DNA of 64,000 nucleotides, taken from contig CM000150.2 in NCBI GenBank assembly GCA_000004695.1, positions 480,001-544,000 of the forward strand, read 5' to 3'. Below are positions 23,467 through 38,377 of the stretch, in pieces. Source of the stretch: Dictyostelium discoideum (taxonomy: Eukaryota). Both the position numbers and the translations under genes were made by a program. Within the stretch, counting starts at the first letter, position 1; each line of letters begins with the position of its first letter. The notes under the pieces are model-generated. The model was not told where the DNA came from. It was given only the letters and a program-made list of their open reading frames with translations, and did no database searches.

Positions 23467-23525
<59 letters not shown>

Positions 23526-23985
23526 GTTTGGGAGTGTTAGTGTGCTATATTTTATTTGTTTTTTCAATTTTTTTTATTTAAAATAAAGTTAATGTTTTTG
23601 ATTTTTTTCAATATTTTTTTTGTCTAAATTTGGGGAAGTGGGTGTTTTTTCAAATAGTTATTGTTTTATGAGTGTTTTTAAGTGGTTGAGTGTGATGTAA
23701 TTTTTAATTTTTGTTATTTTAAAAAAATACAAATTGTTTTTGATAGTGTGTTGGTATGTGTTTTTATTTATTGTGTGTTTTTATTTGTTAAAATAAATAA
23801 AAAAAAAAAATAAAACATAATTTTTAATTTATTTTTTATTTTCATTTGTCAATATTAAAATTTACCAGTATAATAATTTATTATTTTTATCATTCTTGAA
23901 GACAGGAAAAAATAAAAAATTAATTATTTCTTTTATTATTTATTAAAAAAATAAAAAACTAAATCTGATTTTAAATAGTTTTACA

Positions 23986-26744
23986 ATGGAGAAAAAATTA
24001 TTAATAATAGTTATCATCTTTTTATTTTCAATTATCCAAGTATTTTGTAGAATTGATTCTAGTATGTATTAAACAAAAAAAAAAAACCAAAGTTTTAATA
24101 ATTTTTTAAAAAACATATTGTATTAATAATAAAAAACTTTAAATGAAAAATAGAAACATTTGTAATTTCAAATGAAACATTCCTATCATACCATTTTCCA
24201 GTTGGTAGTGAATATTTTTCATCATTAAATTTTGAACTTTTAGTAGGGCCATCATTTCAATTGGATTTTTAATGTATTACTTTCAATAGTACATTTTGTT
24301 TTTCAAAAATTGATCAAGAAAATAAAAAACAATTGTATGGTAAATCCATTACCTACTCAACACAAGAAACCTATGATTTGGATAAAAAAAGGCTACCAAC
24401 TCCAATAGTTTCTTCACCTTTCCAAAAACCAACAAAAGGTGGAACCTCAATTTTAAAAGGTACTTATTTAACATTTTTTGAAAAAAATTATTATGAAGTT
24501 ATCTACCCAGAAAAACAAACAATTGATATTTTGAATTCAAAATCATTATAATTCGATGCAACAAATGTTAAAGTTAATTGTCCACCTGGTTGTGGTTATC
24601 AAATAATTAAATGTGAGAATGGTAAATTATTTAATTTTAGTTATTCAAATCCATCAGTATTTGATTATAAAATAAATTCATCAAATATTATTGTAAATGG
24701 ATCTGATTTTTGTGATAGTTCTTATTCTTCAAATATTACAATTGATGGTGTTATCATTCCAAATTCAAATTATCAAAAAGATGAAGACTCAATTGTAATT
24801 ATTTATACTCAACAACATACAACCAAATCATTAATGAAAATAGAAACAAGCAATGTAACATCTGTTGAAATTGAAATTGTTTTTAAATCAGAACCATTAA
24901 TAATAAATTCAATTCCATATAGTAAAGGTGGTTTAATTATTTTAGAAGGTTTAAGATTATCTTCAAATACAAATAAAAACAATAATAACAATATAATTAT
25001 TAAAATTGGAAATACAACATGTTCAAATGCAATTTCAATATCAAATGAATCAATCACATGTAATTTAAATCCGGGTATAAATAAATCAGTTACTTTAAAT
25101 AATTTACCAGTTTCAGTTACAATTAATAATATTACAAATGAAAATACATTATTATTTAATTATGGTATGGTCAAATTAAATCCAAATAAATATAGTTTAC
25201 CAGATCGTGTTTTACAATTAAATGGTGATTGTCTCGGAAATTCAAATAGTACTATTGTTTATTTAAATGGAAAAGAAACATTATTAAATGATTTAAAAAT
25301 AAATAACCAAGAAACAACTTTATCATTTAAAATACCAGATGAATTTAAATCAAAATTAAATGTTTCAATCAAGGTAAATGATATTTTATCAAATGAAATT
25401 CAAATTGATATTTCATTTTATGCAAGTCATTCAAATGAACAACCAAGTACAAATGGTAAAACAAATATTATATTCACATTATATAATATTAAATCTGAAA
25501 ATTATAATAAAATACCATCAATTATTATAATTCCTGAACAAATTGTAATAAATGGTGTTTCAGTAAATTCACCAACCAATCAAGATGTTCATTCGTATTC
25601 ATTTTTAATTCCAGCTGGGTGTGGTAAAAAAGATATTCAAATTATAATTGGTAGTCAATCATGTTTGTCATCAATTACATACTTTGAACCAATTATTAAA
25701 AATTGTTTAGTATCAGGTTTTGATGGTACAAATGGAAATATAATTTGTGATGGTAGTTTTGGTAATAAAGATTATTTAATTAAATCATCTGTACTATTTT
25801 CAAATGATGAAATTGTACCACCATCAATCAATAGTACAACATTTTCGTTCCCTCTAATATCAGGTTATCACAGTGATGATTTAATTTTTCAAATGTGCGG
25901 TGTTCAAAGTAAACCATTTAAATTAAACATCTCACCATCATTAAAAGGAATCAATCACAGTCAAATGGAAACATTAGGTGGTAAATTTTACATTCTTGGT
26001 GAATTCTTTAGTGCAAATATAAATTGTAGTGTATTTTGCAATGATAAAGAATATGAAAAACATTTTGAAAACTCAAAGACGATTTCATTCGATTTACAAA
26101 TTCCAGGTCCAAATGATATTACATGTAATTATACATTTGATAATGGAAAAAATACTGGTGATTTTAAGATTGAATATCCTTTACCATTAATAGAAAATAC
26201 GAGCTCAATAAATGTAAATGGTGGAAATTTAACAATTTATGGTAAAAACTTTTATAATATTTCAAATATCAAAGTTGAAGTTGATAATCAATTAAAATGT
26301 AATAATATTGAATTTATTAATTTAAATAGTTTAACCTGTTTCTTACCACCATTTAATGAAACAAGAAAACAACCATTATTTAATGATCAAAAACTATTAT
26401 TAAATTCATCAACAACTATTTTTAGCAAAAAATTATTATTAAATGTTACATTTGAAAGTAAAACATGGAGTGGATATATTTTTCAATATTCAAAAGAAGA
26501 AATAAAAAATAATGGTACAAGTGAAAATTCAACCAATGATATTTTAAATCATGAAAAAAATAATAATAATCAGAAAGATGGAAGTAGTTTAAGTAAAAAA
26601 AGTATAATATTATTATCAATATTATTACCTGGTTTTATTATTTTAATAGTTTCTTTAACAATTGTTATTCTTGTAATTAAAAAAAATAAAACAAAACATA
26701 GTAAAAATATGTCACCAAAAGAGAAAGAATTAATGAAACAATAA
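23986..26744 (+). pseudogene. tgr-like IPT/TIG membrane glycoprotein, array copy 1, pseudogene: in-frame TAA at 24270..24272 and 24549..24551, plus a Trp-to-Cys change
   Basis: Same exon structure as copies 2-4 (exon 1 23986..24061, exon 2 from 24154). LDFECIT is replaced by LDF*CIT (gaa to taa) and SLSFDAT by SL*FDAT (tca to taa). IKWENG is replaced by IKCENG. The distal 636 codons (24834..26744) remain open. Confidence 0.75.
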
Positions 26745-27059
26745 TAGTAGCAATAAAAATAATTTAATAATTATTAAATTATTAATTTATTATTTATATT
26801 TAATAATTAATATTATTTGTAATAGGGAAATGGGCATCTTCAAATATTTTTTATTTCTCTGATCATAAATTTGAACCTGACCGATTTTTTTCCAAATTTC
26901 AATTTCACATTCTCCCAACTCAACAAAAAGATATTACTTAAAAAACTATAAAATTATATCGAATAACAATTTTTAAAAAATAGTAATAATAAAAAAAAAA
27001 AAGAAACATTCAATAATAATAATGATTGAAAAGATGTTTTTAAATTGTTGATTGTTTAG

Positions 27060-27137
27060 AAGTTTGTATTTTTTTTTGAAAATCCAATTTTAACTTTAAA
27101 ATACAATTTAATGTTTTTGATAGTGTGTTTTTTATTT

Positions 27138-27171
<34 letters not shown>

Positions 27172-27660
27172 AATGTGTGTTAGTGTACTATGTTTTATTA
27201 GTTATGTGAGTTTGTTGTGTTTTTTCAATTTATTCTATTTAAAATAAAGATAATGTTTTCGATAGTGTGTTATTTTTCAATATTTGTCTAAGTTTGGAGA
27301 AGTGGGTGTTTTTTTCAAATAATTATTGTTTTATGAGTGTTTTTAAGTGGTTAAGTGTGATGAAATTTTTTATTTTTTGTTATTTTAAAAAAATACAAAG
27401 TGTTTTTGATAGTGTGTTAGTGTGTGTTTTTATTTAATTTATTTTTATTCAATTTTTTTAATTATTTTTTAATATTGTATAAATAAATAATAAAAAAAAA
27501 TAAAACATTATAATTTTTAATTTATTTTTTATTTTCATTTGTCAATATTAAAATTTACCAGTATAATAATTTATTATTTTTATCATTCACCAACAAATAA
27601 TAAAAAAAATTAATTATTTGTTTTAAAATATTAAAAAATTAAATCTGATTTTAAATAATT
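27060..27660 (+). promoter_or_regulatory. Conserved 5' module of the tandem units, present at about 23460..23985, 27060..27665, 30740..31340 and 34600..35176, containing repeated GT-rich boxes (putative G-box/GBF-type developmental elements)
   Basis: Blocks such as ggagaagtgggtgttttttt, gtttttgatagtgtgttagtgtgtgttttt and gtggttaagtgtgatg recur in the same order before each copy, embedded in otherwise A/T-only DNA. The TTTTGATAGTGTG motif occurs about three times per unit. Confidence 0.35.
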
Positions 27661-27665
27661 TTACA

Positions 27666-30414
27666 ATGGAGAAAAAATTACTAATAATAGTTATCGTCTT
27701 TTTATTTTCAACTATCCAAGTATTTTGTAGAATTGATGATAGTATGTATAAAACAAAAAAACAAAACTTTATCATTTTTCAAAAAACATATTGTATTAAT
27801 AAATGAAAACTTTAAATGAAAAATAGAAACATTTGTAATTTCAAATGAAACATACCTATCATACCATTTTCCTGTTGATAGTGAATACTTTTCATCATTA
27901 AATTTTGAACATTATGAAGGACCATCATTTCAATTGGATTTTGAATGTATTACTTTCAATGGCACAATTTGTTTTTCACAAATTTATCCAGAAATTAAAA
28001 AAAAAATTTATGGTACGTCAATTTCATATTCAACACAAAAAACATACAAATTAGATCAAGAATTGTTTCCAACTCCAATAGTTTCCTCACCTTTCCAACC
28101 TCCAACAAAAGGTGGAATCTCAATTTTAAAAGGTACTTTTTTAACATTTTCGGAAAAAACCTTTTATCAAGTTATCTACCCAAAAAAGCAAAAGATTTTT
28201 ATTTTAGATTCAGAATCGTTATCGTTCGATGCAACAAATTTTAAAGTTAATTGTCCACCTGGTTGTGGTTATCAAATAATTAAATGGGATAATGGTAATT
28301 TATTTAATTTTAGTTATTCAAATCCATCAATATCGGTTGTTAAAATAAATCCATCAAATATTATTGTAAATGGATCTGATTTTTGTGATAGTTCTTATTC
28401 TTCAAATATTACAATTGATGGAGTTATCATTCCAAATTCAAATTATGAAAAAGATGAAGACTCAATTGTAATTATTTATACTCAACAACACACAATCAAA
28501 TCATTAATGAAAATTGAAACAAGCAATGTAACATCTGTTGAAATTGAAATTGTTTTTAAACCAGAACCTTTATTAATAAACTCGGTTCCATATAGTAAAG
28601 GTGGTTTATTAATTTTAGAAGGTTTAAGATTATCTTCAAATACAACAAATAAAAATAATAACAATAATAATATAATTATTAAAATTGGAAATATTACATG
28701 TTCAAACGCAATTTCAATCTCAAATGATTCAATCACATGTAATTTAAATCCGGGTTTTAATAATAAATCAGTTACTTTAAATAATTTACCAGTTTCAGTT
28801 ACAATTAACAATATTACAAATGAAAATAAATTATTATTTAATTATGGCATCGTTAAATTAAATCCAAATAAATATAGTTTACCAGATCGTGTTTTACAAT
28901 TAAATGGTGATTGTCTCGGAAATTCAAATGGTACTATAGTTTATTTAAATGGAAAAGAAACATTATTAAATGATTTAAAAATAAATAACCAAGAAACAAC
29001 TTTATCATTTAAAATACCAGATGAATTTAAATCAAAATTAAATGTTTCAATCAAGGTAAATGATATTTTATCAAATGAAATTCAAATTGATATTTCATTT
29101 TATGCAAGTCATTCAAATGAACAACCAAGTACAAATGGTAATACAAATATTATATTCACATTATATAATATTAAATCTGAAAATTATAATAAAATACCAT
29201 CAATTATTATAATTCCTGAACAAATTGTAATAAATGGTGTTTCAGTAAATTCACCAACCAATCAAGATGTTCATTCGTATTCATTTTTAATTCCAGCTGG
29301 GTGTGGTAAAAAAGATATTCAAATTATAATTGGTAGTCAATCATGTTTGTCATCAATTACATACTTTGAACCAATTATTAAAAATTGTTTAGTATCAGGT
29401 TTTGATGGTACAAATGGAAATATAATTTGTGATGGTAGTTTTGGTAATAAAGATTATTTAATTAAATCATCTGTACTATTTTCAAATGATGAAATTATAC
29501 CACCATCAATCAATAGTACAACATTTTCGTTCCCGCTTATATCAGGTTATCACAGTGATGATTTAATTTTTCAAATGTGTGGTGTTCAAAGTAAACCATT
29601 TAAATTAAACATCTCACCATCATTAAAAGGAATCAATCAAAGTCAAATGGAAACATTAGGTGGTAAATTTTACATTCTTGGTGAATTCTTTAGTGCAAAT
29701 ATAAATTGTAGTGTATTTTGCAATGATAAAGAATATGAAAAAAAATTTGAAAACTCAAAGACGATTTCATTCGATTTACAAATTCCAGGTCCAAATGATA
29801 TTACATGTAATTATACATTTGATAATGGAAAAAATACTGGTGATTTTAAGATTGAATATCCTTTACCATTAATAGAAAATACGAGTTCAATAAATGTAAA
29901 TGGTGGAAATTTAACAATTTATGGTAAAAACTTTTATAATGTTTCAAATATCAAAGTTGAAGTTGATAATCAATTAAAATGTAATAAAATTGAATTTATT
30001 AATTTAAATAGTTTAACCTGTTTCTTACCACCATTTATTGAAACATTATTTAATGATCAAAAACTATTATTAAATTCATCAACAACTATTTTTAGTAAAA
30101 AATTATTATTAAATGTTACATTTGAAAGTAAAACATGGAGTGGATATATTTTTCAATATTCAAAAGAAGAAATAAAAAATAATGATACAAGTGAAAATTC
30201 AACCAATGATATTTTAAATCATGAAAAAAATAATAATAATCAGAAAGATGGAAGTAGTTTAAGTAAAAAAAGTATAATATTATTATCAATATTATTACCT
30301 AGTTTTATTATTTTAATAGTTTCTTTGGCAATTGTTATTCTTGTAATTAAAAGAAATAAAACAAAACATAGTAAAAATATGTCATCAAAAGAGAAAGAAT
30401 TAATGAAACAATAA
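27666..30414 (+). CDS. tgr-like IPT/TIG type-I membrane glycoprotein, array copy 2, join(27666..27741,27827..30414)
   Basis: Signal peptide MEKKLLIIVIVFLFSTIQVFC in exon 1 (GTATGT...ATAG intron, phase 1). At least three IPT/TIG-like modules (e.g. PYSKGGLLILEGLRLSS...IIIKIGNITCSNAISISNDSITCNLNPG; YPLPLIENTSSINVNGGNLTIYGKNFYNVSNIKVEVDNQLKC...LTCFLPPF). More than 50 N-x-S/T sequons. C-terminal TM SIILLSILLPSFIILIVSLAIVILVI with a short basic tail. Lacks 4 aa (FIETLFNDQ) relative to copies 1, 3 and 4 (FNETRKQPLFNDQ). Confidence 0.8.
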
Positions 30415-30807
30415 TAGTAGCAATAAAAATAATTTAATAATTATTAAATTATTAATTTATTATTTACATTTAATAATTAATATTATTTGTAATAGGGAAA
30501 TGGGCATCTTCAAATATTTTTTATTTCTCTGATCATAAATTTGGACCTGACCGATTTTTTTCCAAATTTCAATTTCACATTCTCCCAACTCAACAAAAAG
30601 ATATTACTTAAAAAACTATAAAATTATATCAAATAACAATTTTTAAAAAATAGTGATAATAAAAAAAAAAAAGAAACATTCAATAATAATAATAATTGAA
30701 AAGATGTTTTTAAATTGTTGATTGTTTAGAAGTTTGTATTTTTTTTTGAAAATCCAATTTTAACTTTAAAATACAATTTAATGTTTTTGATAGTGTGTTT
30801 TTTATTT

Positions 30808-30840
<33 letters not shown>

Positions 30841-31340
30841 AATGTGTGTTAGTGTACTATGTTTTATTAGTTATGTGAGTTTGTTGTGTTTTTTCAATTT
30901 ATTCTATTTAAAATAAAGATAATGTTTTCGATAGTGTGTTATTTTTCAATATATTTTTGTTGTCTAAGTTTGGAGAAGTGGGTGTTTTTTTCAAATAATT
31001 ATTGTTTTATGAGTGTTTTTAAGTGGTTAAGTGTGATGAAATTTTTTATTTTTTGTTATTTTAAAAAAATACAAAGTGTTTTTGATTGTGTGTTAGTGTG
31101 TGTTTTTATTTAATTTATTTTTATTCAATTTTTTTAATTATTTTTTAATTTTGTATAAATAAATAATAAAAAAAATAAAACATAATAATTTTTAATTTAT
31201 TTTTTATTTTCATTTGTCAATATTAAAATTTACCAGTATAATAATTTATTATTTTTATCATTCACCAACAAATAATAAAAAAAATTAATTATTTGTTTTA
31301 AAATATTAAAAAATTAAATCTGATTTTAAATAATTTTACA

Positions 31341-34098
31341 ATGGAGAAAAAATTACTAATAATAGTTATCGTCTTTTTATTTTCAACTATCCAAGTATTT
31401 TGTAGAATTGATGATAGTATGTATAAAACAAAAAAACAAAACTTTATCATTTTTCAAAAAACATATTTTATTAATAAATGAAAACTTTAAATGAAAAATA
31501 GAAACATTTGTAATTTCAAATGAAACATACCTATCATACCATTTTCCTGTTGGTAGTGAATACTTTTCATCATTAAATTTTGAACATTATGAAGGACCAT
31601 CATTTCAATTGGATTTTGAATGTATTACTGGCAATGGTACAGTTTGTTTTTCACAAATTTATCCAGAAATTAAAAAAAAATTTTATGGTACGTCAATTTC
31701 ATATTCAACACAAAAAACATACAAATTAGATCATGAATTGTTTCCCACTCCAATAGTTTCCTCACCTTTCCGACCACCAACAAAAGGTGGAATCTCAATT
31801 TTAAAAGGTACTTATTTAACATTTTCTGAAAGACTTTCCTATTATGAAGTTATCTACCCAAAAAAACAAAAGATTGTGATTTCAGATTCAGAATCATTAT
31901 CATTCGATGCAACAAACGTTAAAGTTAATTGTCCACCTGGTTGTGGTTATCAAATAATTAAATGGGAGAATGGCCAATTATTTAATTTTAGTTATTCAAA
32001 TCCATCAGTATTTGATTATAAAATAAATCCATCAAATATTATTGTAAATGGATCTGATTTTTGTGATAGTTCTTATTCTTCAAATATTACAATTGATGGT
32101 GTTATCATTCTAAATTCAAACTACCAAAAAGATGAAGACTCAATTGTAATTATTTATACTCAACAACACACGACCAAATCATTAATGAAAATTGAAACTA
32201 GCAATGTAACTTCTGTTGAAATTGAAATTGTTTTTAAACCAGAACCATTAATTATAAATTCAATTCCATATATTAAAGGTGGTTTAATTATTTTAGAAGG
32301 TTCAAGATTATCTTCAAATACAAATAAAAACAATAATAATAATATAATTATTAAAATTGGAAATATTACATGTTCAAACGCAATTTCAATCTCAAATGAA
32401 TCAATCACATGTAATTTAAATCCGGGTATATATAATAAATCAGTTCCCTTAAATAATTTACCAGTTTCAGTTACAATTAACAATATTACAAATGAAAATA
32501 CATTATTATTTAATTATGGTATGGTCAAATTAAATCCAAATAAATATAGTTTACCAGATCGTGTTTTACAATTAAATGGTGATTGTCTTGGAAATTCAAA
32601 TAGTACCATAGTTTATTTAAATGGAAAAGAAACATTATTAAATGATTTAAAAATAAATAACCAAGAAACAACTTTATCATTTAAAATACCAGATGAATTT
32701 AAATCAAAATTAAATGTTTCAATCAAGGTAAATGATATTTTATCAAATGAAATTCAAATTGATATTTCATTTTATGCAAGTTATTCTAATGAACAACCAA
32801 GTACAAATGGTAATACAAATATAATATTCACATTATATAATATTAAATCTGAAAATTATAATAAAATACCATCAATTATTATAATTCCTGAACAAATTGT
32901 AATAAATGGTGTTTCAGTAAATTCACCAACCAATCAAGATGTTCATTCGTATTCATTTTTAATTCCAGCTGGGTGTGGTAAAAAAGATATTCAAATTATA
33001 ATTGGTAGTCAATCATGTTTGTCATCAATTACATACTTTGAACCAATTATTAAAAATTGTTTAGTATCAGGTTTTGATGGTACAAATGGAAATATAATTT
33101 GTGATGGTAGTTTTGGTAATAAAGATTATTTAATTAAATCATCTGTACTTTTTTCAAATGATGAAATTGTACCACCATCAATCAATAGTACAACATTTTC
33201 GTTCCCACTAATATCAGGTTATCACAGTGATGATTTAATTTTTCAAATGTGCGGTGTTCAAAGTAAACCATTTAAATTAAACATCGCACCATCTTTGAAA
33301 AGAATCGATCAAAGTCAAATGGAAACATTGGGTGGTAAATTTTACATTCTTGGCGAATTCTTTGGTGTAAATATAAATTGTAGTGTATTTTGCAATGATA
33401 AAGAATATGAAAAAAAATTTGAAAACTCAAAGACGATTTCATTCGATTTACAAATTCCAGGTCCAAATGATATTACATGTAATTATACATTTGATAATGG
33501 AAAAAATACTGGTGATTTTAAGATTGAATATCCTTTACCATTAATAGAAAATACGAGTTCAATAAATGTAAATGGTGGAAATTTAACAATTTATGGTAAA
33601 AACTTTTATAATGTTTCAAATATCAAAGTTGAAGTTGATAATCAACTAAAATGTAATAATTTTGAATTTATTAATTTAAATAGTTTAACCTGTTTCTTAC
33701 CACCATTTAATGAAACAAGAAAACAATCATTATTTAATGATCAAAAACTATTATTAAATTCATCAACAACTATTTTTAGCAAAAAATTATTATTAAATGT
33801 TACATTTGAAAGTAAAACATGGAGTGGATATATTTTTCAATATTCAAAAGAAGAAATAAAAAATAATGATACAAGTGAAAATTCAACCAATGATATTTTA
33901 AATCATGAAAAAAATAATAATAATAATCAGAAAGATGGAAGTAGTTTAAGTAAAAAAAGTATAATATTATCAATATTATTACCTGGTTTTATTATTTTAG
34001 TAGTTTCTTTAACAATTGTTATTATTGTAATTAAAAGAAATAAAACAAAACATAGTAAAAATATGTCATCAAAAGAGAAAGAATTAATGAAACAATAA
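31341..34098 (+). CDS. tgr-like IPT/TIG type-I membrane glycoprotein, array copy 3, join(31341..31416,31502..34098)
   Basis: Same architecture as copy 2. Intact ORF with scattered substitutions clustered in the N-terminal domain. One-residue shorter TM (SIILSILLPG...). Confidence 0.8.
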
Positions 34099-35176
34099 TA
34101 GTAGCAATAAAAATAATTTAATAATTATTAAATTATTAAATTATTATTTATATTTAATAATTAATATTATTTGTAATAGGGAAATGGATGTATCTTCAAA
34201 ATATTTTTTATTTCTCTGATCATAAATTTGAACCTGACCGATTTTTTTCCAAATTTCAATTTCACATTCTCCCAACTCAACAAAAAGATATTACTTAAAA
34301 AACGATAAAATTATATCAAATAACAATTTTTAAAAAATAGTAATAAAAAAAAAAAAATTAAAAAGAAACATTCAATAATAATAAAAATTAAAAAAAATGT
34401 TTTTAAATTGTTGATTGTTTAGAAGTTTGTATTTTTTTTTGAAAATCCAATTTTAACTTTGGAGAAGTGGGTGTGTTTTTAATTTTTTTTTTTTGTAAAT
34501 CTAATTATAACTTAGGAGAAGTGGGTGTTTTTTTTTTTTTTTTTTTTTATGAAAGTGTGTTAATGTGTGATGTTTTGATTTGTTAAATGATTTTTTCTCT
34601 TTTAATTCAATTTGTTTTTTTTTAAAATACAATTTAATGTTTTTGATAGTGTGCATTTTTTATTTGTTTTTTTTTTTTTTTTTTTTGGAATGTGTGTTAG
34701 TGTACTATGTTTTATAAGTTATGTGAGTTTGTTGTGTTTTTTCAATTTATTTTATTTAAAATAAAGATAATGTTTTCGATAGTGTGTTATTTTTCAATAT
34801 ATTTTTGTTATCTGAGTTTGAAGAAGTGGGTGTTTTTTCAAATAATTATTGTTTTATGAGTGTTTTTAAGTGGTTAAGTGTGATGAAATTTTTTATTTTT
34901 GTTATTTTAAAAAAAAATACAAAGTTTTTTTGATAGTGTGTTAGTGTGTGTTTATTTAATGTATTTTTATTCAATTTTTTTAATTATTTTTTAATTATAT
35001 TTGAATAAATAATAAAAAAAATAAAACATTAAAATATTTAATTTTTTTTTTTTTTTCATTTGTCAATATTAAAATTTACCAGTATAATTTATTATTTTTA
35101 CCATTCACCAATAAAAAAAAAAATTATTATTTATTTTAAAAATAAAAAACTAAATCTGATTTTAAATAGTTTTACA

Positions 35177-38100
35177 ATGGAGAAAAAATTATTAATAATA
35201 GTTATCATCTTTTTATTTTCAACTATCCAAGTATTTTGTCAAATTGATTATAGTATGTATAAAACAAAAAAACAAACTTTTAATAATTTTTTAAAATATA
35301 TTGTATTAATAATTGAAAACTTTAAATTAAAAATAGAAACATTTGTAATTTCAAATGAAACATACCTATCATACCATTTTCCAGTTGGTAGTGAATATTT
35401 TTCATCATTAAATTTTGAACGTTTCGTAGGTCCATCATTTCAACTGGATTTTGAATGTATTACTTTCAATGGTACAGTTTGTTTTTCTCAAATTAATCAA
35501 GAAAATAAAAAACAATTGTATGGTACATCCATTACCTATACAACAAAAGTAACTATTAGTTTGTATAAGAATAACCTTCCAACTCCAATAGTTTCTTCAC
35601 CTTTCCAACCTCCAACAAAAGGTGGAATCTCAATTTTAAAAGGTACCTATTTAACATTTTCTGAAAGACTTTCCTATTATGAAGTTATCTACCCAAAAAA
35701 ACAAAAGATTGTGATTTCAGATTCAGAATCATTATCATTCGATGCAACAAACGTTAAAGTTAATTGTCCACCTGGTTGTGGTTATCAAATAATTAAATGG
35801 GAGAATGGCCAATTATTTAATTTTAGTTATTCAAATCCATCAGTATTTGATTATAAAATAAATCCATCAAATATTATTGTAAATGGATCTGATTTTTGTG
35901 ATAGTTCTTATTCTTCAAATATTACAATTGATGGTGTTATCATTCCAAATTCAAACTACCAAAAAGATGAAGACTCAATTGTAATTATTTATATTCAACA
36001 ACACACAACCAAATCATTATTGAAAATAGAAACAAGCAATGTAACATCTGTTGAAATTGAAATTGTTTTTAAACCAGAACCATTAATTATAAATTCAATT
36101 CCATATAGTAAAGGTGGTTTAATTATTTTAGATGGTTCAAGATTATCTTCAAATACAAATAAAAACAATAATAATATAATTATTAAAATTGGAAATATTA
36201 CATGTTCAAACGCAATTTCAATCTCAAATGAATCAATCACATGTAATTTAAATCCGGGTATATATAATAAATCAGTTGCCTTAAATAATTTACCAGTTTC
36301 AGTTACAATTAATAATATTACAAATGGAAATACATTATTATTTAATTATGGTATGGTCAAATTAAATCCAAATAAATATAGTTTACCAGATCGTATTTTA
36401 CAATTAAATGGTGATTGTCTCGGAAATTCAAATAGTACTATTGTTTATTTAAATGGAAAAGAAACATTATTAAATGATTTAAAAATAAATAACCAAGAAA
36501 CAACTTTATCATTTAAAATACCAGATGAATTTAAATCAAAATTAAATGTTTCAATCAAGGTAAATGATATTTTATCAAATGAAATTCAAATTGATATTTC
36601 ATTTTATGCAAGTCATTCTAATGAACAACCAAGTACAAATGGTAATACAAATATTATATTCACATTATATAATATTAAATCTGAAAATTATAATAAAATA
36701 CCATCGATTATAATTATTCCTGAACAAATTGTTATTAATGGTGTTTCAGTAAATTCACCAACCAACCAAGATGTTCATTTGTATTCATTTTTAATTCCAG
36801 CTGGGTGTGGTAAAAAAGATATTCAAATTATAATTGGTAGTCAATCATGTTTGTCATCAATTACATACTTTGAACCAATTATTAAAAATTGTTTAGTATC
36901 AGGTTTTGATGGTACAAATGGAAATATAATTTGTGATGGTAGTTTTGGTAATAAAGATTATTTAATTAAATCATCTGTACTTTTTTCAAATGATGAAATT
37001 GTACCACCATCAATCAATAGTACAACATTTTCGTTCCCTCTAATATCAGGTTATCACAGTGATGATTTAATTTTTCAAATGTGCGGTGTTCAAAGTAAAC
37101 CATTTAAATTAAACATCTCACCATCATTAAAAAGAATCAATCAAAGTCAAATGGAAACATTGGGTGGTAAATTTTACATTCTTGGTGAATTCTTTAGTGC
37201 AAATATAAATTGTAGTGTATTTTGCAATGATAAAGAATATGAAAAACATTTTGAAAACTCAAAGACGATTTCATTCGATTTACAAATTCCAGGTCCAAAT
37301 GATATTACATGTAATTATACATTTGATAATGGAAAAAATACTGGTGATTTTAAGATTGAATATCCTTTACCATTAATAGAAAATACGAGTTCAATAAATG
37401 TGAATGGTGGAAATTTAACAATTTATGGTAAAAACTTTTATAATGTTTCAAATATCAAAGTTGAAGTTGATAATCAATTAAAATGTAATAATATTGAATT
37501 TATTAATTTAAACAGTTTAACCTGTTTCTTACCACCATTTAATGAAACAAGAGAGCAATCATTATTTAATGATCAAAAACTATTATTAAATTCATCAACA
37601 ACTATTTTTAGCAAAAAATTATTATTAAATGTTACATTTGAAAGTAAAACATGGAGTGGATATATTTTTCAATATTCAAAAGAAGAAATAAAAAATAATG
37701 GTACAAGTGAAAATTCAAGTAATGATATAATAGATCATGAAAAAAACAATAATACTACAAAAAATGGTAAAGGCGGTATCAATTTAAGTAAAGAAAGTAA
37801 AATAATAATTTCTGTAGTCTTACCTGGTGTTATTATTTTAATAATTTTATCGGTAGTAGTAATCTATCGTATTAGAATAAATAGAATTACACGAAATACA
37901 TATGTGAAAAAAATTAATGAAATGAAAACAATAACACCAGAAGAGAAACGAGATGAAATAGATGAATCAGATGAAATTAAAAAAAAACTTGATATTGAAA
38001 TGTCAGAATTAAGATCCAATCTATTCATACACTCAATCAGTTATACTAACACACTCAAAGAACAACAAATGGAAAGGGATCAAATCAATAAAAGTCCAAG

Positions 38101-38377
38101 TCTACAAATTCAACCACAAAATAATCAATTGAATATAATTAATAATGGTGAAGGTTCAAGTCAACAAATTCAACCACAAAGTAATCAATCAAATATTATT
38201 AATAATGATGAGGGTTCAAGCCACCAATTTCAACCTGAAATTAATCAATCCAATACAATTAATAATAGTGAAGGTTCAAGTCAACAAATTCAACCACAAA
38301 ATAATCAATTGAATATAATTAATAATGATGTGGGTTCAAGTCACCAATCTAAGCAAAATGATAGTACTGGTTGCTGA
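35177..38377 (+). CDS. tgr-like IPT/TIG type-I membrane glycoprotein, array copy 4, join(35177..35252,35337..38377), with a divergent TM and a roughly 200-aa cytoplasmic tail carrying three EGSSQQIQPQNNQLNIINN-type repeats
   Basis: Ectodomain is collinear with copies 2 and 3 up to ...YSKEEIKNNGTSENS. It then diverges (KNGKGGINLSKESKIIISVVLPGVIILIILSVVVIY...) into a long tail with an acidic stretch and three 19-aa repeats. The 3' flank is also unrelated to those of units 1-3. Confidence 0.75.
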   Translation: MEKKLLIIVIIFLFSTIQVFCQIDYSMYKTKKQTFNNFLKYIVLIIENFKLKIETFVISNETYLSYHFPVGSEYFSSLNFERFVGPSFQLDFECITFNGTVCFSQINQENKKQLYGTSITYTTKVTISLYKNNLPTPIVSSPFQPPTKGGISILKGTYLTFSERLSYYEVIYPKKQKIVISDSESLSFDATNVKVNCPPGCGYQIIKWENGQLFNFSYSNPSVFDYKINPSNIIVNGSDFCDSSYSSNITIDGVIIPNSNYQKDEDSIVIIYIQQHTTKSLLKIETSNVTSVEIEIVFKPEPLIINSIPYSKGGLIILDGSRLSSNTNKNNNNIIIKIGNITCSNAISISNESITCNLNPGIYNKSVALNNLPVSVTINNITNGNTLLFNYGMVKLNPNKYSLPDRILQLNGDCLGNSNSTIVYLNGKETLLNDLKINNQETTLSFKIPDEFKSKLNVSIKVNDILSNEIQIDISFYASHSNEQPSTNGNTNIIFTLYNIKSENYNKIPSIIIIPEQIVINGVSVNSPTNQDVHLYSFLIPAGCGKKDIQIIIGSQSCLSSITYFEPIIKNCLVSGFDGTNGNIICDGSFGNKDYLIKSSVLFSNDEIVPPSINSTTFSFPLISGYHSDDLIFQMCGVQSKPFKLNISPSLKRINQSQMETLGGKFYILGEFFSANINCSVFCNDKEYEKHFENSKTISFDLQIPGPNDITCNYTFDNGKNTGDFKIEYPLPLIENTSSINVNGGNLTIYGKNFYNVSNIKVEVDNQLKCNNIEFINLNSLTCFLPPFNETREQSLFNDQKLLLNSSTTIFSKKLLLNVTFESKTWSGYIFQYSKEEIKNNGTSENSSNDIIDHEKNNNTTKNGKGGINLSKESKIIISVVLPGVIILIILSVVVIYRIRINRITRNTYVKKINEMKTITPEEKRDEIDESDEIKKKLDIEMSELRSNLFIHSISYTNTLKEQQMERDQINKSPSLQIQPQNNQLNIINNGEGSSQQIQPQSNQSNIINNDEGSSHQFQPEINQSNTINNSEGSSQQIQPQNNQLNIINNDVGSSHQSKQNDSTGC

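Follow-up and report, generated by a model that had tools for sequence, protein, structure and literature searches.

How old is a dead gene whose sequence, over most of its length, is almost the same as that of its living neighbours? The question is raised by four tandem tgrO genes on chromosome 1 of Dictyostelium discoideum AX4, which lie within the 64,000-nucleotide stretch of DNA analyzed here (the window), in sequence of ~78% A+T. The 5′-most gene, copy 1, carries in-frame nonsense codons where the other copies have sense codons. An earlier note had called it a freshly inactivated pseudogene, reasoning that its near-identity to the functional copies implied either very recent loss of function or gene conversion maintaining the 3′ part. 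We find good grounds for the pseudogene and for the second of these alternatives. Copy 1 is very probably a duplicated tgrO pseudogene with a mosaic structure, in which the 3′ part has been homogenised by conversion or unequal crossing-over.

The tgrO array and its first copy

When the short 5′ intron is removed, the translations of all four copies contain a signal peptide, an Ig-like ectodomain, one transmembrane helix and a cytoplasmic tail, and the Pfam family of the array genes is PF24612 (‘TgrO1-like immunoglobulin-like domain’). The exon structure of copy 1, applied to copies 2–4, reproduces the deposited proteins exactly (Table 1); all three are encoded on a 4.92-Mb chromosome. A literature search for the dictyBase names tgrO1–4, or for a ‘_ps’ entry, among the four copies fixed only copy 2, as TgrO1, via UniProt; the exonic lengths in one supplementary table are those of another strain and match none of the array copies. 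Copy 1 resembles TgrO1 (Q55GI8), Q55GI7 and Q55GI6 in its place in the array, exon–intron layout, signal peptide, Ig_TgrO1 ectodomain, transmembrane helix and short tail, and shares ~98% nucleotide identity with them across the 3′ 2 kb. It differs from them by two in-frame TAA codons, by a Trp179-to-Cys change, and by a promoter and first ~160 codons that are 10–14% diverged. Over the N-terminal 175 residues its identity to copies 2–4 is 75–82%, compared with ~98% at the nucleotide level over the rest.

Table 1 Features of copy 1 and its intact neighbours, in window coordinates
Feature	Position	Strand	Description	Basis
5′ flank/promoter region of copy 1	23480..23985	+	inside the repeat unit; ~90% identity	aligned to upstream regions of copies 2–4
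Copy 1 exon 1	23986..24061	+	ATG and signal peptide MEKKLLIIVIIFLFSIIQVFC	gene model
Copy 1 intron 1	24062..24153	+	GTATGT...AAATAG, 92 nt, 88% A+T	position conserved across all copies and strains
Copy 1 exon 2	24154..26744	+	Ig_TgrO1 ectodomain, transmembrane helix, short tail; two stops inside	gene model and Pfam PF24612
‘Intron A’ of KAM9943780.1	24248..24289	+	hides stop 1; 42 nt, GC-AG, 74% A+T	coding in all paralogs, hence regarded as spurious
Nonsense codon 1	24270..24272	+	TAA, codon 65; GAA (Glu) in copies 2–4; G>T	direct reading, spliced model 23986–24061 + 24154–26744; also in second assembly
Putative recombination/conversion junction zone of copy 1	24455..24680	+		topology switch near 24460; divergence drop at 24551 or 24679
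‘Intron B’ of KAM9943780.1	24460..24573	+	hides stop 2; 114 nt, GT-AG, 79% A+T, a coding composition	coding in all paralogs, hence regarded as spurious
Nonsense codon 2	24549..24551	+	TAA, codon 158; Ser in copies 3 and 4 (TCA) and copy 2 (TCG); C>A	direct reading; also in second assembly
Putatively homogenised 3′ part of copy 1	24552..26744	+	still open	low divergence and dS, few private substitutions
Trp-to-Cys change	24612..24614	+	TGT for TGG, codon 179, G>T; motif GCGYQIIKWENG	TGG in copies 2–4; private change at 24614
Copy 2 (tgrO1)	exons 27666–27741, 27827–30414	+	intact, 887 aa	exact match to XP_647196.2/UniProt Q55GI8 ‘Tiger protein O1’
Copy 3	exons 31341–31416, 31502–34098	+	intact, 890 aa	exact match to XP_647197.1/Q55GI7
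Copy 4	exons 35177–35252, 35337–38377	+	intact, 1038 aa, long cytoplasmic tail	exact match to XP_647198.2/Q55GI6

Read from the translation alone, copy 1 has the N terminus MEKKLLIIVIIFLFSIIQVFC and, near the C terminus, SIILLSILLPGFIILIVSLTIVILVI followed by KKNKTKH. PF24612 matches its conceptual translation in three stretches (E=1.8e-35, 121 bits; 1.2e-39 for copy 2); in the intact copies the first stretch scores best, but in copy 1 a later one does. With this domain family, a signal sequence together with a single C-terminal transmembrane helix, and paralogy with the adjacent TgrO1, copy 1 belongs to the TgrO subfamily of Tiger (Tgr) transmembrane Ig-like proteins. The hallmarks of a non-processed copy are also present, namely the retained intron and upstream homology from ~23480.

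Copies 2–4 stay open over 887, 890 and 1038 codons at 78% A+T, and the stops of copy 1 are therefore true departures from a conserved frame rather than chance occurrences. The first lies in frame where copies 2–4 have GAA, just as reported earlier. For the second, the reported contrast with TCA applies to copies 3 and 4, but copy 2 has TCG, which still encodes Ser; codons 65 and 158 specify Glu and Ser in the ACTFIW and ACTFIR genes as well. The Trp-to-Cys change, previously placed near 24611, is confirmed a base further on. Trp179 is invariant in 26 of 26 aligned family members, including paralogs only ~30% identical, so its replacement, which falls within the first Ig_TgrO1 domain (residues 113–190 in the intact copies), is a third damaging change. 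The three lesions occupy the N-terminal fifth of the gene, a narrower region than the N-terminal third given before, and copy 1 contains no frameshift anywhere. The frame downstream of the second stop is open for 731 codons if the natural stop is included; the earlier figure of 636 counts only from the first subsequent ATG, at 24834, which begins a 636-aa ORF with Ig-like domains and the transmembrane helix.

Translation from the normal ATG of copy 1 would stop at codon 65, having produced only the signal peptide and ~40 further residues. Termination there would leave copy 1 with neither an Ig-like ectodomain nor a membrane anchor, and the codon-158 stop and the loss of Trp179 in the first Ig_TgrO1 domain would be additional lesions. 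The hits and clusters that we examined contain no AX4 protein record for copy 1, and its three neighbours have the consecutive records XP_647196/7/8; neither the 636-aa ORF nor the 72-aa ORF that lies between the two stops has a record by exact look-up. Two independent nonsense codons and a lost invariant Trp, each of which recurs in a second assembly (GCA_054883475.1, locus tags ACTFIT) with the same four-gene array, together with the lack of an AX4 protein record in these searches, uphold the proposal that the gene is dead. The evidence supports classing copy 1 as a non-processed (duplicated) pseudogene of the tgrO subfamily, for which we infer both the absence of a functional product and pseudogene status in dictyBase.

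Mosaic structure of the four copies

All six pairs of copies are mosaics, with 10–14% divergence in the 5′ part and 2–3% in the 3′ part. Maximum chi-square analysis found clustered differences in every pair, and 0 of 500 permutations reached the observed value (p<0.002). In comparisons with copies 3 and 4 the breakpoint of copy 1 coincides with the final base of the second stop (24551), and in the comparison with copy 2 it is at 24679; divergence from copies 3 and 4 is 13.5% and 10.8% to the left of 24551, and 2.7% and 2.4% to the right. Phylogenetically informative sites also change their grouping along the gene. From 23480 to ~24450, 39 sites support (1,4)(2,3), and from ~24460 onward 16 sites support (1,2)(3,4). 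This array shows copy 1 to have apparently exchanged blocks with copy 4 (the 5′ block) and with copy 2 (the middle block).

Synonymous divergence follows the same division. Between copy 1 and copies 2, 3 and 4, dS is 0.19, 0.18 and 0.13 in codons 1–200 and 0.024, 0.049 and 0.057 in codons 401–830, a 3- to 8-fold fall from 5′ to 3′. Within AX4 as a whole, dS is 0.08–0.23 in codons 1–200 and 0.02–0.075 in codons 401–830, compared with between-strain values of 0.12–0.17 throughout for the arrays of two wild D. discoideum isolates. In protein alignments, the 3′ part carries strain-specific residues that are common to the copies of one genome, such as SGFDG in AX4 versus SGYDG in the wild isolates, and strains differ in which N-terminal types are combined with which tail types. 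Across 24154–24560 copy 1 differs from its paralogs by 10–20%. The promoter lies on the divergent side. Between 23554 and 23958, copies 1 and 2 differ at 39 of 384 aligned bases, whereas only 3 of 427 separate copies 2 and 3, which are 99–100% identical in the upstream region; the 5′ flank of copy 1 is as rich in private sites as the start of its coding sequence and also has many sites that join it with copy 4. The earlier description of the remaining codons and the promoter as nearly identical to the functional copies thus holds for the 3′ part, at ~98%, but not for the promoter, at ~90%.

Clustered differences, incompatible topologies and low 3′ dS fit best with concerted evolution by gene conversion or unequal crossing-over, a mechanism that we read from the pattern. 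Conversion maintaining the 3′ part, raised in the earlier note as its second alternative, is the better supported of the two, given mosaics in six pairs, the topology switch at ~24460 and the fall in dS. We propose that the promoter, exon 1, intron and first ~160 codons of copy 1 represent an old private lineage, 10–14% diverged from its neighbours, and that downstream of this segment gene conversion or unequal crossing-over has held copy 1 within ~2–3% of the intact genes. The same process appears to shape all four copies, whose promoters and N-terminal parts retain older lineages. There are parallels with other cases of concerted evolution around a protected hypervariable segment, such as MHC genes and intralocus recombination in tgrB/tgrC, in that near-identical blocks alternate with old, diverged ones, the topology changes along the gene, and strain-specific 3′ residues are common within a genome. 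In contrast to these systems, conversion in the tgrO array is deduced from pattern only, and TgrO proteins have no known function (PMC12745789).

Age of the inactivation

The label ‘freshly inactivated’ had been drawn from the near-identity of the 3′ part, which does not support such a conclusion, because that near-identity belongs to all four copies, as the six mosaic pairs, the topology switch and the dS drop indicate. Since the 3′ part is refreshed by exchange, its clean state dates the last exchange and not the death of the gene. More generally, near-identity to functional paralogs cannot date a pseudogene in a tandem array when the copies evolve in concert.

Private substitutions of copy 1 are distributed very unevenly (binomial p=1.5e-10): the leading 582 aligned coding sites contain 27 of them and the following 1740 sites contain 8. 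The codons for K122, E151 and T154 are among those with private variants. The eight 3′ substitutions, past alignment codon 200 (~24660 onward), comprise four non-synonymous and four synonymous changes and include no lesion; copy 1 has the fewest private 3′ changes among the four copies, as would be expected from recent overwriting by intact neighbours. Both stops sit on the long private 5′ branch, and the Trp-to-Cys change (24614) lies just inside the homogenised part, before ~24660. Approximately 6.9% of possible point substitutions in the 5′ segment create a stop, so that 27 neutral changes predict ~1.9 stops, and two are observed. Prolonged drift of the 5′ part could yield such a count, and the stops could date from any time on the private branch.

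The reading that competes best with this one is very recent loss, in which copy 1 worked until shortly before NC4 was isolated, its N-terminal divergence is normal hypervariability, and the stops and the Trp-to-Cys change are its newest mutations. Several observations are as this reading predicts. First, copy 1 carries substitutions only, with no frameshift or deletion. Second, the first 150–200 codons are hypervariable among all the intact copies too, and an intact gene, ACTFIW copy B, has the same amount and the same kind of private N-terminal change, with a non-synonymous to synonymous (N:S) ratio of 25:7 compared with 21:6 in copy 1. Finally, there is no significant acceleration relative to the intact copies. 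Tajima relative-rate counts of non-synonymous changes are 19 versus 18 for copy 1 and copy 4, and 31 versus 16 for copy 1 and copy 2, the latter a nominal signal only (p=0.04, uncorrected). Nevertheless, three independent damaging hits within 345 nt are hard to accommodate in a very short time without many accompanying neutral changes, as each extra stop, at ~7% stop-creating substitutions, implies roughly 14 neutral substitutions. Moreover, the 3′ identity is explained by the concerted evolution common to all copies, and the promoter is ~10% diverged too. We therefore regard very recent loss as possible but rather unlikely.

The comparison of dN/dS between the 5′ and 3′ parts, put forward in the earlier note as a check, is uninformative on age, and the private N:S ratio of copy 1 matches that of the intact gene. 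The N-terminal N:S ratio is near neutral, or diversifying, in intact tgrO genes as well, and with near-neutral evolution in working genes dN/dS cannot date the inactivation. When the repaired N-terminal 227 aa served as a protein query for a closer relative or an intact allele of this segment, only three hits came back, the best at 79% identity, from a cryptic sister species.

Reality of the stops and the place of copy 1 in the tgr family

Three further readings would make the stops either unreal or harmless, and the first is that the AX4 reference is in error, through sequencing or through assembly, such as a wrong joining of paralogous reads in a near-identical array. Mis-assembly is a well-known hazard where, as here, four copies share ~98% identity across 2 kb. 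The stops, however, sit where copy 1 differs by 10–14% from the other copies, which makes assembly easy, and the changes are substitutions, not errors in homopolymer length. Both AX2 and AX4 descend from NC4, as axenic strains derived separately. The second assembly is almost certainly that of AX2-214, as we infer from a study in which AX2-214 is the one laboratory strain sequenced de novo by Nanopore and all wild isolates are called genetically diverged from AX4 (PMC12745789). Along 15.1 kb, the only departures of this assembly from the window are two non-coding SNPs and two homopolymer length differences, and both TAA codons and the TGT are present. Resequencing had been named as the check on the stops, with GAA and TCA at these positions as the sign of assembly errors; this independent long-read assembly in effect supplies the check, carrying all three changes and neither GAA nor TCA. 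Lesions common to AX4 and the presumed AX2-214 assembly must predate the laboratory lineages and are not Sanger assembly errors. Despite a published caution about cross-mapping of short reads between paralogous tgr genes (bioRxiv 10.1101/2025.10.22.684067), an identical sequence in a de novo long-read assembly leads us to reject assembly error as the source of the stops, and an artefact seems to us extremely improbable.

It is equally hard to believe that copy 1 is functional and that its stops are spliced out, as in the automatic model deposited in GenBank for GCA_054883475.1 (KAM9943780.1, P0004; 836 aa), in which two introns remove exactly both stops. Their excision does restore an open frame, and the second ‘intron’ has GT-AG ends. 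But the first is only 42 nt long with GC-AG ends, and both have a coding-like composition, 74% and 79% A+T compared with 88% in the real intron. Splicing them out would cost the protein residues that all paralogs and strains conserve, half of the first Ig_TgrO1 domain among them, and would leave the Trp179-to-Cys change in place. Avoiding in-frame stops is, moreover, typical behaviour of ab initio predictors. We reject splicing around the stops on intron length, splice-site form, composition and conservation, and KAM9943780.1 is regarded as an artefact, probably a mis-modelled pseudogene. As for a truncated product made from the internal ATG at 24834 or by stop-codon read-through, we give it next to no credence even with the 636-aa ORF still open, as such a product would lack the signal peptide needed to place the ectodomain outside the cell, is not on record as a 636-aa protein by exact look-up, and would require many upstream ATGs to be bypassed; programmed read-through at TAA is not known from Dictyostelium.

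As a duplicated pseudogene, copy 1 is unremarkable, being of a kind already known in a family full of pseudogenes. The tgr family evolves by birth and death and numbers 38 genes and 26 pseudogenes in AX4; tgrA/H/I/O are among the fastest-duplicating groups, and the copies that are intact vary by strain (PMC12745789; bioRxiv 10.1101/2025.10.22.684067). Long-read assemblies exist for North American wild isolates ~0.3% distant from AX4 (EO617, EO1224, EO1236, EO1271, QS18, QS33, QS68; bioRxiv 10.1101/2025.10.22.684067). Like the annotated AX4 tgr pseudogenes (for example, tgrC_ps1), of which it may itself be one, copy 1 adjoins intact paralogs and is disabled by internal stops; it is full length rather than truncated. 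The tgrO cluster is thus one worked example of the birth-and-death and recombination dynamics already described for tgr. The practical value of the result is small but real, in that the in-frame stops are genuine, a GenBank model is mis-modelled, and a mosaic map of the tgrO array is now available.

A more speculative role, which by analogy with chicken pseudo-V genes and VSG pseudogenes we mention as a long shot, is that copy 1 might serve as a silent donor cassette, keeping a private N-terminal segment beside the expressed tgrO genes while conversion refreshes its 3′ homology. If so, segments copied into or out of the expressed neighbours could generate new surface-protein variants. A similar donor model has recently been proposed for partial tgrB/tgrC duplicates (PMC12745789).

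Between strains, the tgrO array is evolutionarily fluid. There are four copies in AX4 and in GCA_054883475.1, two plus a 3′ fragment in ACTFIW, one in ACTFIR and two in D. citrinum, and in the cryptic sister species the array is rearranged and frame-broken.

Substitutions and gene model of copy 1

The GenBank protein KAM9943780.1 (ACTFIT_008359, 836 aa), deposited for copy 1 of a near-identical laboratory strain (GCA_054883475.1, here the second assembly; locus L002), comes from an ab initio gene prediction whose introns skip both stop codons of the pseudogene. Each of the three damaging changes of copy 1, at window positions 24270, 24550 and 24614, is a G:C-to-T:A transversion (G>T, C>A and G>T, respectively). 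Among the substitutions private to copy 1, meaning those absent from its paralogs, C>A or G>T accounts for 10 of 35 as a raw count.

Across the 15 kb compared, the window and the second assembly differ solely in the lengths of two T-runs and at two non-coding SNPs. One run, at window 23468–23524, is an uninterrupted 57-nt poly(T) that precedes the copy-1 ATG by ~460 bp and is 14 nt shorter in the second assembly; the other, at ~27139–27170 upstream of copy 2, is shorter there by 4 nt. These differences could represent true length polymorphism or homopolymer error in Nanopore or Sanger reads.

Array architecture and the individual copies

The tgrO array (window 23986–38377) consists of short-tailed copies 1–3 followed by a single long-tailed copy 4. 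Copy number varies by strain, with four copies in AX4, two plus a fragment in the wild isolate ACTFIW, one in the wild isolate ACTFIR and two in D. citrinum (window and loci L003, L004 and L005). Comparison of the arrays shows that N-terminal type and tail type have been recombined between strains; in ACTFIW copy A, for example, a short tail is joined to a copy-4-like N terminus.

The 5′ intron of copy 4 carries TTA where copies 1–3 carry TGA and thus contains no in-frame stop, so that the mechanical ORF reads through the intron to give 1105 aa; removal of this intron is confirmed by the deposited protein. In the long cytoplasmic tail of copy 4, the NN.EGSSQQIQPQ.NQSN units are encoded by a tandem repeat, and the orthologous long-tailed genes of ACTFIW and ACTFIR contain several extra units, their proteins being 1117 and 1137 aa long versus 1038 aa for copy 4. 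Separately, four codons (RKQS) that all other copies and strains in the protein alignment retain have been deleted in frame from copy 2 (TgrO1) alone.

Features of tgrO genes and their coordinates
Feature	Position	Detail
KAM9943780.1 gene model	L002 10001-12759 = window 23986-26744	
Copy-2 RKQS deletion	window 30140-30160 region	protein ...PPFIET--LFND...
Copy-4 read-through ORF	window 35060-38377	
Copy-4 cytoplasmic tail tandem repeat	window 38097-38347	60-nt (20-aa) unit, 4.2 copies
Split homologue and upstream partial copy	L006 6900-13400	GCA_054859205.1, Dictyostelium cf. discoideum

A split homologue in Dictyostelium cf. discoideum

In Dictyostelium cf. discoideum, the homologous gene is spread across three reading frames and called as pieces of 335 and 719 aa. 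Upstream of it lies a partial copy carrying an inverted fragment. This arrangement could represent another pseudogene or result from Nanopore indel errors.
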